Below are positions 3,098 through 55,373 of a stretch of 64,000 nt of DNA, one piece after another. Made by a program: the position numbers and the translations under genes. The stretch is from assembly GCA_944391505.1 (NCBI GenBank), contig CALXTV010000005.1, forward strand, positions 5,033 to 69,032, given 5' to 3'. Numbering within the stretch: position 1 is the stretch's first letter; every line of letters starts with the position of its first letter. Origin of the DNA: an uncultured Alphaproteobacteria bacterium. Lineage in GTDB: Bacteria > Pseudomonadota > Alphaproteobacteria > RF32 > CAG-239. Below the pieces are notes generated by a model, which was given only the letters and a program-made list of their open reading frames with translations, did no database searches and was not told the origin of the DNA.

Positions 3098-3538
3098 ATG
3101 AAGGTAACGATTTTGGCAATCGGCAAATGTAAGAAAAATTCACCGGAAGCTCTGATTATTGACGAGTATGTCAAGCGTTCTGGCTGGATGGTGGCAATTA
3201 AAGAAAAGGACAATGCTTCTCAGGAAGAAGAGGCAAAATTTTTGCAGGGGAATATTCCTTCCGGCGCAAAGGTCGTTGTTTTGGACGAACGCGGAGAAAA
3301 TATGAAAAGTTTGGAACTGGCTGCCAAAATTGAAAACTGGATGCTGAACGGTTGTTCGGAAATCTGTTTTCTGATCGGTGGTGCGGACGGGCATCTTCAA
3401 TCGACCAGAGACCGGGCGGACCTATTGCTTTCTTTCGGGAAACTGACTTTGCCGCATATGCTTATGCGGGCCGTTTTGGCCGAGCAGATTTATCGTATAC
3501 AGACGATTGTTAATCATCATCCTTATCATCGCGAATAA
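3098..3538 (+). CDS. rlmH: 23S rRNA (pseudouridine1915-N3)-methyltransferase RlmH
   Basis: SPOUT family at about 146 aa, with LIGGADGH near the C-terminus and conserved placement after rsfS. Confidence 0.9.
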   Translation: MKVTILAIGKCKKNSPEALIIDEYVKRSGWMVAIKEKDNASQEEEAKFLQGNIPSGAKVVVLDERGENMKSLELAAKIENWMLNGCSEICFLIGGADGHLQSTRDRADLLLSFGKLTLPHMLMRAVLAEQIYRIQTIVNHHPYHRE

Positions 3539-3545
3539 AAAACTC

Positions 3546-3582
3546 GTATAGTGGTCAACTCGTACAGAAACATCGGGGTAAA
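3546..3582 (+). repeat. 37-bp direct repeat, copy 1 (gtatagtggtcaactcgtacagaaacatcggggtaaa)
   Basis: Exact duplicate of 3776-3812. It contains the internal sub-repeat aactcgtaYa twice. Confidence 0.8.
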
Positions 3583-3775
3583 ATTTTTAGTCACGTACTT
3601 TTTTGACTCAGGAACCTAAGCTCGCTGTGGTCGCTGTTGCTTCCTGGCTCGCGTAAGGTTTTCTGAGATGTTGCAGATAAAAAAGCAACACTGGTTGCTT
3701 TTTTACTTAGCCATTGCTCAAAAAATTTTCCCCTTGTTTCTTACTATTTGACTCACTCTTCGAGTTTTTTAATTT

Positions 3776-3812
3776 GTATAGTGGTCAACTCGTACAGAAA
3801 CATCGGGGTAAA
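3776..3812 (+). repeat. 37-bp direct repeat, copy 2
   Basis: Identical to 3546-3582. The two copies are separated by 193 bp of AT-rich sequence containing TTGACT boxes and an A6-hairpin-T6 element. Confidence 0.8.
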
Positions 3813-4019
3813 TAGTTAAACTCTTCATAATTGTATTTAGCCAAAAACAAAGAGCCTCTCATTATATTTTGACTTATTATGAGAAGTAAGTTAACATATA
3901 TTTGATAGGTGTGATGTGAACAGCAATTGGCAGGTCTTATATCTGCTCTTTGCCGAAGTTTCTGCGCACCTCCGCCTTCGCAGGCGCCGTCCCTTATATT
4001 AACTTGTCCGAGGTGTGCC

Positions 4020-6323
4020 ATGGCTCGTGTTCATCTGTTCTTTTCTATCGTTTTGGCCAGCGGTGCTTTTTTTGCCGCGGCCGATGTTTCGGAGGCTGAA
4101 CAAAGCCTGCCGCTTACCTTGTCGGTTAATACACACACAAATACATTATCCACACCCCTGACGGCGTCTGCGTCTCTTTTTGCCGATTTGAAAAATTCTT
4201 ATCAGACTGTCGGCGTTTGCTTTATCGGTTTTGGCGATTGTATGGAAGATGCCGGTTTTGGCAGGGGCGGTGATGATTATTCGCTGGATACGGCCTCTCA
4301 ATGCAAAAACGAGGGATATGTTCTCAACAACTGCAATTCCGTTCAATCCCCCAAAGATTATTGCCCGTATAACAAGTCTTATGTTTCCGGATGTAAATGT
4401 GCGTCTAACCTTATAACCTGTCCGGCAGGGCAAGTCGGTGTGGGTGATGCCTGCGAGGGAAAGTACGCTTCCTGCAAATGCGACCCTAATCTTATAAGCT
4501 GCGCTTCCAACCAGACCGGACAGGGGGCAAGTTGCGGCGGCAAATATCAGTCCTGCGTCTGCAAGTCGGAATATCAATATAATTCATCAAACTGTACATC
4601 GCCGCGTTCGCTGACCGGTGCCAGCTGCGGCGGCAAGTATACGGGCTGCTCGTGTCCGGGAGGGATAACCAGTCTGCCTTACGGATGCGAGGAATATTAT
4701 GCGTCGCCCTGCAATTCCGTCTGTAAGAAAGCTTATGTGGACAACTGCAGGAATCGTACGGCGGTCAGTACACCGTACGGCTGCCAGACTTATTGGTCTG
4801 ACTGTTCTTCCAAATGTCAGAAGGCTTACCCGGACAACTGCCGGAATCGTACGGCCGCAACTTGTGCTTTTGGCTGTCAGACTTATTGGAGCGATTGTCA
4901 GTCGAAGTGCCAGACCTGCAAGACCGATAACTGTGCCAACCGAACCGCCGTTAATGCGCCATACGGTTGCCAGACTTATTGGTCAGACTGTGCTTCCAAG
5001 TGTCAGACGGCCTATGCCGACAACTGCCACAACCGTACGGCGGTCAGTACACCGTACGGCTGTCAGACTTATTGGTCTGATTGTACTTCCAAATGCCAGA
5101 CGGCTTATGCAGACAACTGTCGGAATCGTTATGTCAATAATGAGCAACAGGTGGCAATTTTCGGCTGTGCTAAGTATTTCGACGATTGTCCGACCAAATG
5201 TCAAATGCCTAATCCGACAAGCTGTACCTATGCCGCGCGAACGGCTCATCCGGAGGCCATTGTGGTCGGGACGAATGAAGAGCTCAGGACTGCGGCGGTT
5301 TCCGGAGAGAAAATTTACCTGAGCAGTGATTTAGATATATATACAAATTTTGAAATTAAAAACGGTACGGCAATCCATTCGGCCTATGAACTGGCGCCGA
5401 AATATTGTCTGGAAAAAGGATGGGGCGGTATATGGAATATTTATGAAGGAACCAAGATTAATGTTCCTTTATATAGTGCCGGGTTAGATGTTATGGGAAG
5501 TTTCAGTTTTTCAAAAGATATTAAGTTAAATTCTTTGTATTTTGGTGCACCGCCTTTGGGAATATCCGAAGAAACCGAAATTAGCATTACTTCTGAAAAT
5601 GATGCCAAAATTCAAAGTTATAACTTAGGTGGTTCGCTTGAGATTTTGAATGATTCGTTGAAGTCGATTTTTATTGATAATCTTGTCTGGGTCTCGACTT
5701 TGCGGCTTGATTTTATTTCAAACGAAGATCTGACGGTGACTGTGAGAAAATCTGGAGAATTTGATTCTCTTAATTTGAGTGGGGGACCGGGAAAGTTTGT
5801 TCTGGAAGACGGAACGTTTAATATTAGGGGTAATATGATTATTAACTCTATTCAGCCTCCTTATTTAGGCGACGGTATCGAAGTTTTGTTTAAAAATGCC
5901 AATGTTAATTTGCGTGACCTTGAGATGCAGTCAAATTCGGAAATCGTGCTGGATAATTCCACTGTTGATGCGAATAATAGCTTGGGAACTTATTTGGATT
6001 ATTCTAACCTTTTCTATGACAACTCTGTGCCGACGGGAGCAATCCGCTTTAAGAACGGCAGTAAATGGCTTAATATGTCCCATATTAGCATACACGACCT
6101 TTACGGCGGTGGATATGGCGTGGAGTTTGTTTTTGAACCGAACAGCCATTCTTATATTGAGACGTACAAAGGGTTTGGCACTTGTCAATACGGAAAGATA
6201 TCCGCTCAAGATCCGACGCAGGAAGCAAAATTGCAAAGTTACGGCGCTGCTACGACGGAGCTATGTTTCATACCTGATTATTATAATAATTATACCAAGC
6301 AAATTAATATAAAAGTAGAATAA
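4020..6323 (+). CDS. secreted cysteine-rich repeat protein (767 aa) with a Cys-free beta-rich C-terminal domain
   Basis: The in-frame ATG at 4020 begins a signal peptide, MARVHLFFSIVLASGAFFAAADVS. Residues 110-240 carry about 23-aa C.C..NLI.C...Q.G.G..C.GKY.SC repeats. Residues 240-400 carry five repeats of about 30 aa, NCRNRTAVSTPYGCQTYWSDCxSKCQxAY. The ~375-aa C-terminus is cysteine-free. I recognise no homolog by eye. Confidence 0.75.
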   Translation: MARVHLFFSIVLASGAFFAAADVSEAEQSLPLTLSVNTHTNTLSTPLTASASLFADLKNSYQTVGVCFIGFGDCMEDAGFGRGGDDYSLDTASQCKNEGYVLNNCNSVQSPKDYCPYNKSYVSGCKCASNLITCPAGQVGVGDACEGKYASCKCDPNLISCASNQTGQGASCGGKYQSCVCKSEYQYNSSNCTSPRSLTGASCGGKYTGCSCPGGITSLPYGCEEYYASPCNSVCKKAYVDNCRNRTAVSTPYGCQTYWSDCSSKCQKAYPDNCRNRTAATCAFGCQTYWSDCQSKCQTCKTDNCANRTAVNAPYGCQTYWSDCASKCQTAYADNCHNRTAVSTPYGCQTYWSDCTSKCQTAYADNCRNRYVNNEQQVAIFGCAKYFDDCPTKCQMPNPTSCTYAARTAHPEAIVVGTNEELRTAAVSGEKIYLSSDLDIYTNFEIKNGTAIHSAYELAPKYCLEKGWGGIWNIYEGTKINVPLYSAGLDVMGSFSFSKDIKLNSLYFGAPPLGISEETEISITSENDAKIQSYNLGGSLEILNDSLKSIFIDNLVWVSTLRLDFISNEDLTVTVRKSGEFDSLNLSGGPGKFVLEDGTFNIRGNMIINSIQPPYLGDGIEVLFKNANVNLRDLEMQSNSEIVLDNSTVDANNSLGTYLDYSNLFYDNSVPTGAIRFKNGSKWLNMSHISIHDLYGGGYGVEFVFEPNSHSYIETYKGFGTCQYGKISAQDPTQEAKLQSYGAATTELCFIPDYYNNYTKQINIKVE
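4731..5200 (+). repeat. intragenic tandem DNA repeat (about 90-bp unit, 5 copies) encoding the Cys-rich module
   Basis: Near-identical copies of gcttatg..gacaactgc.gaatcgtacggc...ccgtacggctgccagacttattggtctgactgt...aaatgtcaga. Confidence 0.8.
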
Positions 6324-36386: not shown

Positions 36387-36411
36387 CTTTCCTTTCAAGC
36401 TTGTCTGGCGC

Positions 36412-36449
36412 GCATTCAGAGCAATTTGCCGCGGTCTCGAAAAATTCAT
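36412..36449 (+). repeat. 38-bp direct repeat, copy 1 (gcattcagagcaatttgccgcggtctcgaaaaattcat), ldh upstream region
   Basis: Exact duplicate of 36536-36573. Preceded by an inverted-repeat arm, caagcttgtctgg (36398-36410), whose partner ccagacaagcttg lies at 36507-36519. Confidence 0.75.
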
Positions 36450-36535
36450 GTACTTCTTTGTACACTGGAATTTTTTTCGCCTTGCAAACTTACTCCGACT
36501 GCATCACCAGACAAGCTTGAAGCTTAGTTGGGTAC

Positions 36536-36573
36536 GCATTCAGAGCAATTTGCCGCGGTCTCGAAAAATTCAT
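36536..36573 (+). repeat. 38-bp direct repeat, copy 2
   Basis: Identical to copy 1. Confidence 0.75.
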
Positions 36574-50203: not shown

Positions 50204-50277
50204 TGCTTCATCGTCTAATGGTAGGACAGCGGACTCTGACTCCGTTAATCTTGGTTCGAATCCAGGTGAAGCAGCCA
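50204..50277 (+). tRNA. tRNA-Gln (anticodon CUG)
   Basis: TGCTTCATCGTCTAATGGTAGGACAGCGGACTCTGACTCCGT...GGTTCGAATCCAGGTGAAGCAGCCA. Confidence 0.8.
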
Positions 50278-50288
50278 ATAAAAAAACG

Positions 50289-50363
50289 CCCTCAACAGGG
50301 CGTTTTTTTATTGGCTGAAAAGCATTTGTTAAACGGCGAAGGCAGCGACAGCAACAGAGCCGT
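50289..50363 (+). repeat. 75-bp direct repeat, copy 1, containing a perfect palindromic terminator (ccaataaaaaaacgccctcaacagggcgtttttttattgg)
   Basis: Repeated at 50438-50512 with 2 mismatches; begins 12 bp after tRNA-Gln. Confidence 0.8.
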
Positions 50364-50437
50364 TGTTAAAAATGCTTTGACCGAAGCGCAGTTGTTGAGC
50401 GATGCAGTCGCGAAACTTACGGAGCAAGAGCCAATAT

Positions 50438-50512
50438 CCCTCAACAGGGCGTTTTTTTATTGGCTGAAAAGCATTTGTTAAACGGCGCAGGTAGCGACAG
50501 CAACAGAGCCGT
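50438..50512 (+). repeat. 75-bp direct repeat, copy 2
   Basis: See copy 1; the two copies are separated by a 74-bp spacer. Confidence 0.8.
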
Positions 50513-50686
50513 CGGTATTAATCAGAAAAAAATTTATGTCCGGAAAACCGCAGGAATCCTTTGTTTCAGGAAAGTATAACAAAAAAAATAAAAAATTATT
50601 TTTGCCTTAAGCGTTCCTTAAGTTCAGATTGTTGTACTGACCATGTAATAACGAACGACTTAACTTTTTATTTGAGGAGAAAAAAC

Positions 50687-55297: not shown

Positions 55298-55337
55298 ATC
55301 GGTTCGCGCCCGCTTGGGTTCAAGTCCCAAAAATTAA
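55298..55337 (+). other. tRNA-like 3' fragment (T-arm TTGGG-TTCAAGT-CCCAA) without an acceptor/CCA end
   Basis: Seen in the sequence between the ankyrin gene and tRNA-Thr. It may be an integration scar. Confidence 0.25.
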
Positions 55338-55373
55338 TACCATAAAAAAACTCCCCGCAGGGAGTTTTTTTTA

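Follow-up and report, generated by a model that had tools for sequence, protein, structure and literature searches.

Direct repeats after rlmH in an uncultured gut alphaproteobacterium: probable arms of an extragenic family of long imperfect palindromes

Integron attC sites, such as the VCRs of Vibrio, are imperfect palindromes of ~60–140 nt that lie right after the stops of ORFs, with conserved structure and extrahelical positions and with variable arm sequence. The Correia elements of Neisseria carry terminators and promoters. In alphaproteobacteria, intergenic mosaics of palindromic modules, ~100 bp or more in size, are known as RIMEs. These Rhizobium-specific intergenic mosaic elements are mentioned in PMC2873474. 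BIMEs consist of palindromes in alternating orientation; their modules occur in tandem and in hybrid arrays, mutations in them are complementary, and their length varies markedly between strains (PMC2817692). REP and BIME sequences occur in Enterobacteria, Pseudomonas, Stenotrophomonas and Xanthomonas (PMC2817692; PMC3116915, PMC3733652), and a REP is defined as a palindrome of 20–40 nt whose end bears a conserved tag, GTAG or CGTC (PMC3733652). QMITE2 of Coxiella inserts at or overlapping the 3′ ends of genes, and in some cases the C-terminal codons of a gene, or its stop codon, come from the element (PMC5896051).

Here we analyse a repeat downstream of rlmH in a stretch of 64,000 nt (the window, 64 kb) from an uncultured alphaproteobacterium. 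A sequence-only reading of this DNA had noted two exact copies of a 37-mer between rlmH and a gene for a Cys-rich protein, and had proposed that they mark the attL/attR-like scar of a lost insertion, a duplicated operator or a small RNA locus. We think it likely, instead, that the two 37-mers are successive arms, in the same orientation, of a lineage-specific family of long imperfect palindromes, extragenic and mosaic, REP/BIME- or MITE-like, in uncultured human-gut Alphaproteobacteria.

Architecture of the repeat after rlmH

The 37-mer GTATAGTGGTCAACTCGTACAGAAACATCGGGGTAAA has two exact copies on the + strand of the window, at 3546–3582 and 3776–3812. No third copy was found in the 64 kb at ≤3 mismatches, and the number expected by chance is 0 (100 shuffles). 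If two mismatches are admitted, the direct repeat grows to 42 nt (starts 3541/3771). The sequence-only reading was correct about the exact pair and its 193-bp spacer (3583–3775), and about the first copy beginning at the 8th base past the rlmH stop (TAA, 3536–3538). Its description of the spacer also held: a TTTGACTCA box occurs at 3602–3610 and again at 3747–3755, and an A6...T6 terminator-like element lies at 3678–3705. The spacer is moderately AT-rich, with a GC content of ~0.36–0.41 versus ~0.47 in the flanks. An AACTCGTAYA sub-repeat had been claimed for each copy; it is whole in the first, but the second reads AATTTGTATA. The identity of the two copies (37/37) would fit a recent insertion, or gene conversion, as well as it fits successive arms of an array.

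Overlooked by that reading was a third arm. Positions 3717–3771 form an inverted, imperfect copy of 3536–3588, which comprises the first 37-mer and its flanks (R1). The alignment of R1 with the inverted arm (R′) scores 55, compared to 14.9 ± 2.1 in shuffles, and 44 of 49 positions are identical when three 1-nt gaps are ignored. The order along the DNA is hence arm R1, a loop containing the hairpin at 3607–3667 and a bidirectional terminator-like element, inverted arm R′ and arm R2 (Table 1). Nucleotides 3536–3771 fold as a single long hairpin of 236 nt, in which R′ pairs with R1 (z = –6.6 as RNA, –8.55 as DNA) and which is flanked by an A-tract and a T-tract. The stop codon of rlmH provides the opening three bases of the repeat element. 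An ungapped inverted-repeat scan of the window returned seven pairs, none of them adding another element of such architecture, gapped arms being invisible to such a scan; Tandem Repeats Finder returned no rows for the rlmH locus or for a related array on contig L035.

Table 1. Features of the rlmH repeat locus and of the second array, in window positions
Feature	Position	Strand	Evidence
rlmH (23S rRNA m3-pseudouridine1915 methyltransferase)	3098..3538	+	ORF; Pfam SPOUT_MTase on identical product; homologues named RlmH
Arm R1, R-type, TAAAAAACTCGTATAGTGG...GGGGTAAAATTTTT, holds first exact 37-mer	3536..3588	+	nhmmer R profile, E = 7e-11; alignments
Loop-start motif CACGTACTTTTTTGACT (family motif CAYGTACTT.T.TGTAC)	3592..3608	+	TCACGTACT alignment
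Internal hairpin of nested 'core' module	3607..3667	+	–23.4 kcal/mol, z = –2.2
Bidirectional intrinsic-terminator-like hairpin A6-GCAAC-ACTG-GTTGC-T6	3678..3705	both	12/12 complementary; folding
Arm R′, R′-type, inverted, holds second TTGACTCA box	3717..3771	–	inverted-repeat search; nhmmer minus-strand match 3769–3722
Arm R2, terminal solo R of array, holds second exact 37-mer	3771..3812	+	repeat search; R profile
230-bp unit, present or absent between strains	3546..3775	.	boundaries ambiguous inside 37-bp repeat
Cys-rich secreted-protein gene, neighbour outside the element	4020..6323	+	ORF; no Pfam match
Second array, same architecture, unrelated arms	36411..36573	+	exact 39-nt direct repeat, 124-nt period

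The palindrome at 3678–3705 folds at –13.7 kcal/mol on the + strand and at –14.9 kcal/mol on the – strand (z ~ –3.5 each). By its sequence it has, on both strands, the GC-containing stem-loop followed by a U tract that is typical of intrinsic terminators, and no other structure of this kind lies in the interval from rlmH to the Cys-rich gene. A simple terminator scanner did not list this hairpin, we suspect on account of pairing between its T and A tracts. A promoter-like sequence, TTGACT-17-TAACAT, is present at 3869–3897, ahead of the Cys-rich gene, and a weak promoter-like match, TTATCA-18-TATAGT, overlaps R1; no convincing promoter for a separate RNA was found at the rlmH repeat locus. Searches of Rfam 15, at the gathering threshold for the whole window and at permissive thresholds (E ≤ 10, E ≤ 1) for 3400–4100 and the L035 array, yielded nothing relevant, the best match reaching 18.4 bits where the gathering score is 48. 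A tRNA/tmRNA scan gave no hit near the locus, and Pfam gave no matches for the Cys-rich protein and two neighbours.

The unit is non-coding, and no coding capacity is conserved between units. A small ORF in the core (e.g. MTQEPKLAVVAVASWLA) was considered and rejected, as it is not conserved in the second unit described below and has no ribosome-binding site. Two ideas about the divergence of R from R′ fared no better. Selection at the RNA level through G:U-compatible mismatches is unsupported, the mismatches being T.T, T.C and C.T by inspection, and a DGR-like, adenine-specific mutagenesis was rejected, the substitutions not being A-specific.

The window holds a second array of similar design, upstream of an ldh/mdh gene. 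Its inverted, diverged arm aligns with a score of 37, compared to 12.9 ± 2.0 in shuffles. Its loop, CATGTACTTCTTTGTAC (36447–36463), is identical at 15 of 17 positions to the family loop motif CAYGTACTT.T.TGTAC, which also comes after R arms at other loci, and its arms are unrelated to R. In P0006-type strains this unit is repeated in tandem at least twice, and contigs begin inside the array.

Related arms at other loci

A profile built from ten R- and R′-type arms detected no copy in the 64-kb window outside the rlmH locus. Elsewhere in the genomes of related strains, such arms recur. The spacer between the convergent genes ruvX and lepA, in strains from the same sample sets, is 506 nt long and consists entirely of R/R′ units; in relatives with 88% identical RuvX, it is 44 nt long and has a solo R-like sequence right after the lepA stop. 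A relative with 87% identical RlmH (GCA_944391485.1) retains an R relic after rlmH, identical at 24/24 positions to another arm subtype. Scanning metagenomes with the subtype TACAGGATTAGCGGGTAAAATRAA gave 43 human-gut contigs, which contain at least five further genomic contexts, hybrids and two extra sites on the same contigs. Across related gut strains, the distinct loci number about eight (at least eight), one of them in the window. The genome of the source organism is absent from the scanned DNA collections, which limits how the following negatives are to be read: species-representative genomes gave 0 matches to a degenerate R pattern and only two unrelated terminator hairpins of Caldilineaceae with the R′-R junction palindrome, and the R subtype of the window itself had 0 matches in metagenomes and in viral contigs.

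R nearly always starts at a stop codon (TAA, then AAACCTCGTATA...). Long ORFs (315–721 aa) end exactly at the start of R (TAA, then AAACCTCGTATAACGGGG), as rlmH does in the window. The ORFs before R are presumably TonB-like, RelA/SpoT-like, Slt-like, EttA-like and LepA, names that we assign by sequence and not from a protein-family library. A XerD-like ORF extends into R, which holds its final five codons and its stop. The window itself contains none of the TonB-like, RelA, XerD, Slt and EttA genes that stand ahead of R at other loci. Among the genes called or inspected beside the repeats in the fetched loci, inspection, as opposed to a systematic scan, revealed no transposase.

The arms are ~50 nt long, begin with (T)AAAAACCTCGTATA and are not palindromic themselves. 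Three forms of the unit can be distinguished: a short one of ~84 nt, made of R and a truncated R′; a long one of ~125 nt, with the loop TGCTCACGTACTTCTGTGTACGCTCCGC; and a giant one of ~230 nt, to which the window unit belongs, with a nested module of hairpin and terminator in its loop. Units without any core exist beside those with one. The corresponding folding z-scores are –5.5 (84 nt), –8.5 (126 nt) and –8.55 (236 nt), and nine distinct units of the long form are nearly identical. Identity between R and the reverse complement of R′ is ~90% inside one unit and ~65% across loci and arm subtypes. Their differences (a 3 × 3 internal loop TAT/CTC, an extra A, a C/A and two 1-nt gaps) occupy the same positions in both subtypes, indicating that the imperfect-palindrome architecture is conserved while the arm sequence covaries. 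One hybrid context combines a type-2 R with an R′ identical at 47 of 51 positions to that of the window, which shows mosaic recombination between subtypes. There are also hybrid units with poorly matched arms, and hairpin complementarity is therefore not strictly kept.

Strain variation downstream of rlmH

To describe variation at the locus, we compared gut-metagenome contigs whose RlmH is identical or 98% identical to that of the window. This set holds ~25 contigs and ~10 structural variants. The segment 3′ of rlmH is hypervariable among these strains with 98–100% RlmH identity. Three contigs (L001, L003, L004) have the window allele. Two others (L019, L022) have the unit, with a single G-to-A SNP in R2 (GTAG). 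In four contigs, three with GTAG (L002, L006, L007) and one with GTGG (L024), there is a single R and the segment is shorter by exactly 230 bp. The unit is present in L011, with R2 shortened and diverged; in L009, R2 is likewise diverged and shortened, and R1 and the start of the spacer are missing as well, deleted between two CTCG tetranucleotides. Many contigs end 25–225 nt past rlmH, as expected at a repeat.

In L010 and L017, R′ is followed by a second unit of similar layout and different sequence. It comprises an R-like arm, a hairpin, a terminator (AAAAATAGTCC..GGACTATTTTT) and an R′-like arm, and more R/R′ pairs lie beyond; the additional units in L010 are those of a different locus (ruvX-lepA). 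The layout of hairpin then terminator is common to the second units of L010 and L035, their hairpin being analogous to that of the window and not similar in sequence. Comparison of the core of the window's unit with that of the second unit, or with a tRNA-Gln-adjacent repeat of the window (50289–50522), revealed no significant homology beyond the TCACGTACT loop motif.

The junction k-mer of the empty allele, AACTCGTATAGTAG, is absent from all filled alleles and was seen in three samples. Because this k-mer is unique to the empty allele and recurrent, the allele is real and not a product of assembly collapse. One caveat is that a second deletion, in addition to the confirmed one of the L002 type, is seen only in L024, a contig of 765 nt that could in principle be a collapsed assembly. 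SNPs in the flanks put the window, L002 and L019 lineages ~0.5% apart from each other, and the P0006-type strains (L009, L010, L011) ~1% apart. The P0006-type outgroup is filled, as are two of the three ingroup lineages, and the empty L002 has derived SNPs (GTAG and TATATG) in common with the R2 side of the filled L019. Parsimony over these four strain lineages makes it most likely that the filled state is ancestral and that the single-R alleles arose by precise deletion between the direct arms.

A separate observation, on the side against deletion, is that the crossover deriving L002 from an L019-like parent would be confined to 7 nt.

The sequence-only reading had also raised the question whether the repeat pair and the Cys-rich gene form one indel. 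The pair does bound an indel, of 230 bp, but the Cys-rich gene is present in filled and empty alleles alike, and the two are therefore independent. The gene is itself hypervariable between strains. In the relative with 87% identical RlmH it is absent, and the interval from rlmH to uvrB contains an HTH gene (93 aa).

A probable extragenic mosaic family and its alternatives

The same architecture recurs at several other loci, and strains differ in the number of units (0, 1 or more). Each unit begins with an R arm of ~50 nt, starting with or at the stop of the upstream gene (TAA-AAAACTCGTATAGTGG...). This arm is followed by a loop starting CAYGTACTT..., able to host a nested hairpin and bidirectional intrinsic terminator, and then by an R′ arm of ~50 nt, an inverted copy whose mismatches and bulges are fixed. 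An array takes the form n × (R-loop-R′) plus a terminal R. The window has n = 1 (3536–3771) and the terminal R (3771–3812), and in the model that we favour it is this combination that gives the look of direct repeats bracketing an insert. Units may be lost, and probably also gained, when direct R arms recombine or replication slips between them, and the original spread of the family may have been transposition-like, as proposed for REP/BIME elements and MITEs. The likeliest cellular effect, judging from the predicted structures, is termination and insulation at gene ends: the giant hairpin, with its terminator and flanking A- and T-tracts, would stop transcripts of rlmH and shield the next gene from them.

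The likeness to REP/BIME elements is extensive. R/R′ units are extragenic, imperfect palindromes that form stem-loops, located at the 3′ ends of genes or in the gap between two convergent ones, and roles in termination and at mRNA 3′ ends can be proposed for both. They alternate in orientation and form tandem modular and hybrid arrays, with complementary changes in the arms and interstrain length polymorphism (at rlmH, at ruvX-lepA and in the 124-nt array). In contrast to REPs, however, R arms of ~50 nt are not palindromes, the palindrome being the unit of 84–236 nt; they have no GTAG or CGTC tag; and we see ~8 loci across related strains, compared to >100 copies per genome for REP/BIME. The exact start at stop codons and the nested hairpin-terminator module in the loop are further differences. 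Structured MITEs resemble the units in being non-coding, shorter than 300 bp and dispersed, with long terminal inverted repeats, a very stable stem and copies at or overlapping the 3′ ends of genes. Unlike MITEs, the units form tandem arrays, and a consistent short target-site duplication (2–10 bp) was not found across the R contexts examined, the flanking repeat of 37–42 bp being another copy of the arm.

RIMEs, by their description, are like the R units in being alphaproteobacterial, intergenic, mosaic and palindromic. To our knowledge, they neither abut stop codons nor form arrays of such variable copy number. With attC sites, the units have in common an imperfect palindrome after the ORF stop, conserved imperfections and variable arm sequence. 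R, however, has the ends AAAAACCTCG ... CGAGGTTTTT, without RYYYAAC/GTTRRRY core sites, and, unlike in integron cassettes, the genes upstream are dispersed housekeeping genes. Deletion of the unit would resemble the direct-repeat deletion seen in precise excision of inverted-repeat transposons, in that a 37-bp repeat flanks an inverted-repeat segment and one copy is left. The rlmH repeat is thus a member of an ordinary, previously unnamed family that works like a BIME or a MITE. We file it under neither, because it differs from classical REPs in unit and tag and, as far as the loci seen in related strains show, in copy number, and from MITEs in target-site duplication.

The history of the locus could also be read in the opposite direction. 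A single R would then be ancestral, and a mobile unit of 230 bp (loop + R′ + R, or R + loop + R′) would have been inserted into or beside this solo R and regenerated it, with the help of a site-specific or hairpin-recognising enzyme, leaving the 37-bp repeat as its signature and not as what is left of an array. Such a recent targeted insertion would explain why R1 and R2 are identical while R′ is diverged, why arrays always end in R, why relatives have solo R-like sequences at 'empty' sites, and why both empty and filled alleles occur inside each of two RlmH haplotypes; in addition, the conserved positions of bulges and mismatches suggest recognition of the folded strand by a protein. We nonetheless consider it unlikely, since the more distant P0006-type strains already hold the unit, with a diverged R2, meaning that the filled state predates the window lineage. 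Moreover, no recombinase or transposase was identified among the genes inspected beside the repeats, and deletion between 37-bp direct repeats requires no special enzyme. We regard it as quite improbable, too, that the units are an undescribed mobile hairpin element, homing to the stop codons (TAA, then AAAA) of co-oriented genes, delivering a bidirectional terminator, regenerating R and mobilised by a putative HUH/Y1 or tyrosine recombinase. Recognition of such an element as a folded single strand would account for the conservation of loop and bulge positions while arm sequence covaries. The attL/attR interpretation, with the 3′ end of rlmH as attB of a lost integrative element, has in its favour an identical 37-bp core around extra DNA at the 3′ end of a conserved gene, and alleles with one core. 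We give it very little credence: none of the ~25 contigs, with their ~10 structural variants, has an integrase remnant, a larger insert that includes genes of a phage or an integrase, or any coding DNA between the cores, viral contigs have no match, and the core is not unique, being present in inverted form inside the insert and, as core-like arms, in arrays at unrelated loci.

Two further alternatives assign a function to the insert. The core hairpin and terminator (~3600–3705) could be a functional RNA, processed from the rlmH 3′UTR or transcribed on its own, with the R copies as structural or regulatory flanks. The hairpin-plus-terminator is stable, its order is repeated in the second unit of L010/L035, and the weak promoter-like match over R1 could serve it. 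A small RNA locus is nevertheless very unlikely in our view, given the lack of an Rfam family even at the permissive thresholds and of a convincing promoter, the modest z-score of the internal hairpin (–2.2), the absence of significant sequence common to the two cores past the loop motif, and the finding that the core is dispensable, being missing in some strains and from some units. Alternatively, reversible gain and loss of the terminator unit could act as a contingency (phase-variation) switch, tuning read-through from the rlmH operon into the gene for a hypervariable Cys-rich surface protein. The unit is present or absent in both RlmH haplotypes, it has the only terminator in this interval, and a junction variant creates TTGACT-17-AATAGT. 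But the alleles split by sample and strain lineage, each with SNPs of its own, and not within a lineage, and the same elements follow housekeeping genes that have no such target; we can hardly believe in a switch of this kind. That the same arms recur past the stop codons of unrelated housekeeping genes argues equally against the duplicated operator. The sequence-only reading had set its proposals against a dispersed REP/MITE-type family. At the family level, this is essentially what we find, the 37-mer being one arm subtype, although the exact 37-mer is seen at the rlmH locus only.

Reading the locus as part of a repeat family guards against its annotation as a prophage scar, an operator or an sRNA gene. 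For an abundant, uncultured alphaproteobacterial lineage of the human gut, metagenome assemblies break at R/R′ arrays, which also give rise to apparent rearrangements, for example a junction of rlmH with ruvX. Their length polymorphism may offer markers for strain typing. The family is of modest interest in its own right for its terminator-bearing palindromes placed exactly at stop codons and for hairpin imperfections that are conserved across arm subtypes. If the abutment to stop codons and these imperfections do reflect active targeting, the units would be a useful model for the spread of mobile terminators.

Repeat arms at stop codons and a second array

The R arms, the same-direction arms of the palindromic repeat family, begin at or overlap the stop codons of co-oriented housekeeping genes, both at window position 3536 and in human-gut contexts A, C, D, E and H (contigs L070, L085, L081, L093 and L092, respectively). 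Genes with an R arm at the stop are rlmH, lepA and those encoding TonB-like, RelA/SpoT-like, Slt-like and EttA-like proteins; in the case of a XerD-like gene, the final five codons and the stop are contained in R.

Upstream of an ldh/mdh gene lies a second array, built on an exact 39-nt direct repeat with a period of 124 nt. This array and the rlmH element have an identical arm–loop–inverted arm–arm architecture and a loop motif in common, although their arms are unrelated. Other strains carry at least two tandem units of it, and contig breaks fall inside the array.

Coordinates of the second array and of the tRNA-adjacent features in the window
Feature	Position	Detail
Second array	36411-36573	Exact direct repeat 36411-36449 / 36535-36573; loop motif 36447-36463
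Direct repeat by tRNA-Gln	50289-50373 and 50438-50522	tRNA-Gln at 50204-50277
Terminator hairpins, AAAAAACCTCCCTTAGGGAGGTTTTTTT type	29781-29817 and 55336-55372	Adjoin tRNA-Leu and tRNA-Thr

Repeats and hairpins beside tRNA genes

The 85-nt copies of the repeat by tRNA-Gln are 93% identical, with a period of 149 nt. The repeat starts with the tRNA-Gln terminator hairpin and includes a second, imperfect hairpin; its similarity to the R family is not significant. Identity between the two terminator hairpins listed last is 84%.

Junction contigs

In contig L010 (4441-5040), rlmH with unit 1 is connected to tolB and to the array on the ruvX side. Independently of this, unit 1 is followed in L017 by unit 2, which has the same layout and other sequence. 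In L071 the TonB-like gene is connected to the ruvX side. These joins represent either true rearrangements through recombination between family members or chimeric assembly across the repeat.

Two short contigs (L023, 1692-1725; L025, 538-567) depart from every other allele, one past GTACTTTTTT and the other directly past the rlmH stop, hinting at additional structural variants or chimeras at the rlmH locus.

The Cys-rich gene and a candidate promoter

The Cys-rich secreted protein (4020-6323) has no Pfam match. Its gene contains 93-nt tandem repeats (4740-5204), encodes 736, 766, 767 or 810 aa depending on the strain, and diverges by 7-11% in nucleotide sequence between strains with flanks about 1% apart. 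A 93-aa HTH gene takes its place in a relative at 87% in RlmH.

In P0006-type strains, the junction between the inverted arm R' and the terminal arm R2 is 6 nt shorter (L011, 1330-1410; L009, 4560-4645; corresponding to window 3747-3790), creating TTGACT-17 nt-AATAGT; spacing in the window counterpart is 23 nt. Judged by its sequence, the P0006-type version would make a good sigma-70-like promoter, directed toward the Cys-rich gene.
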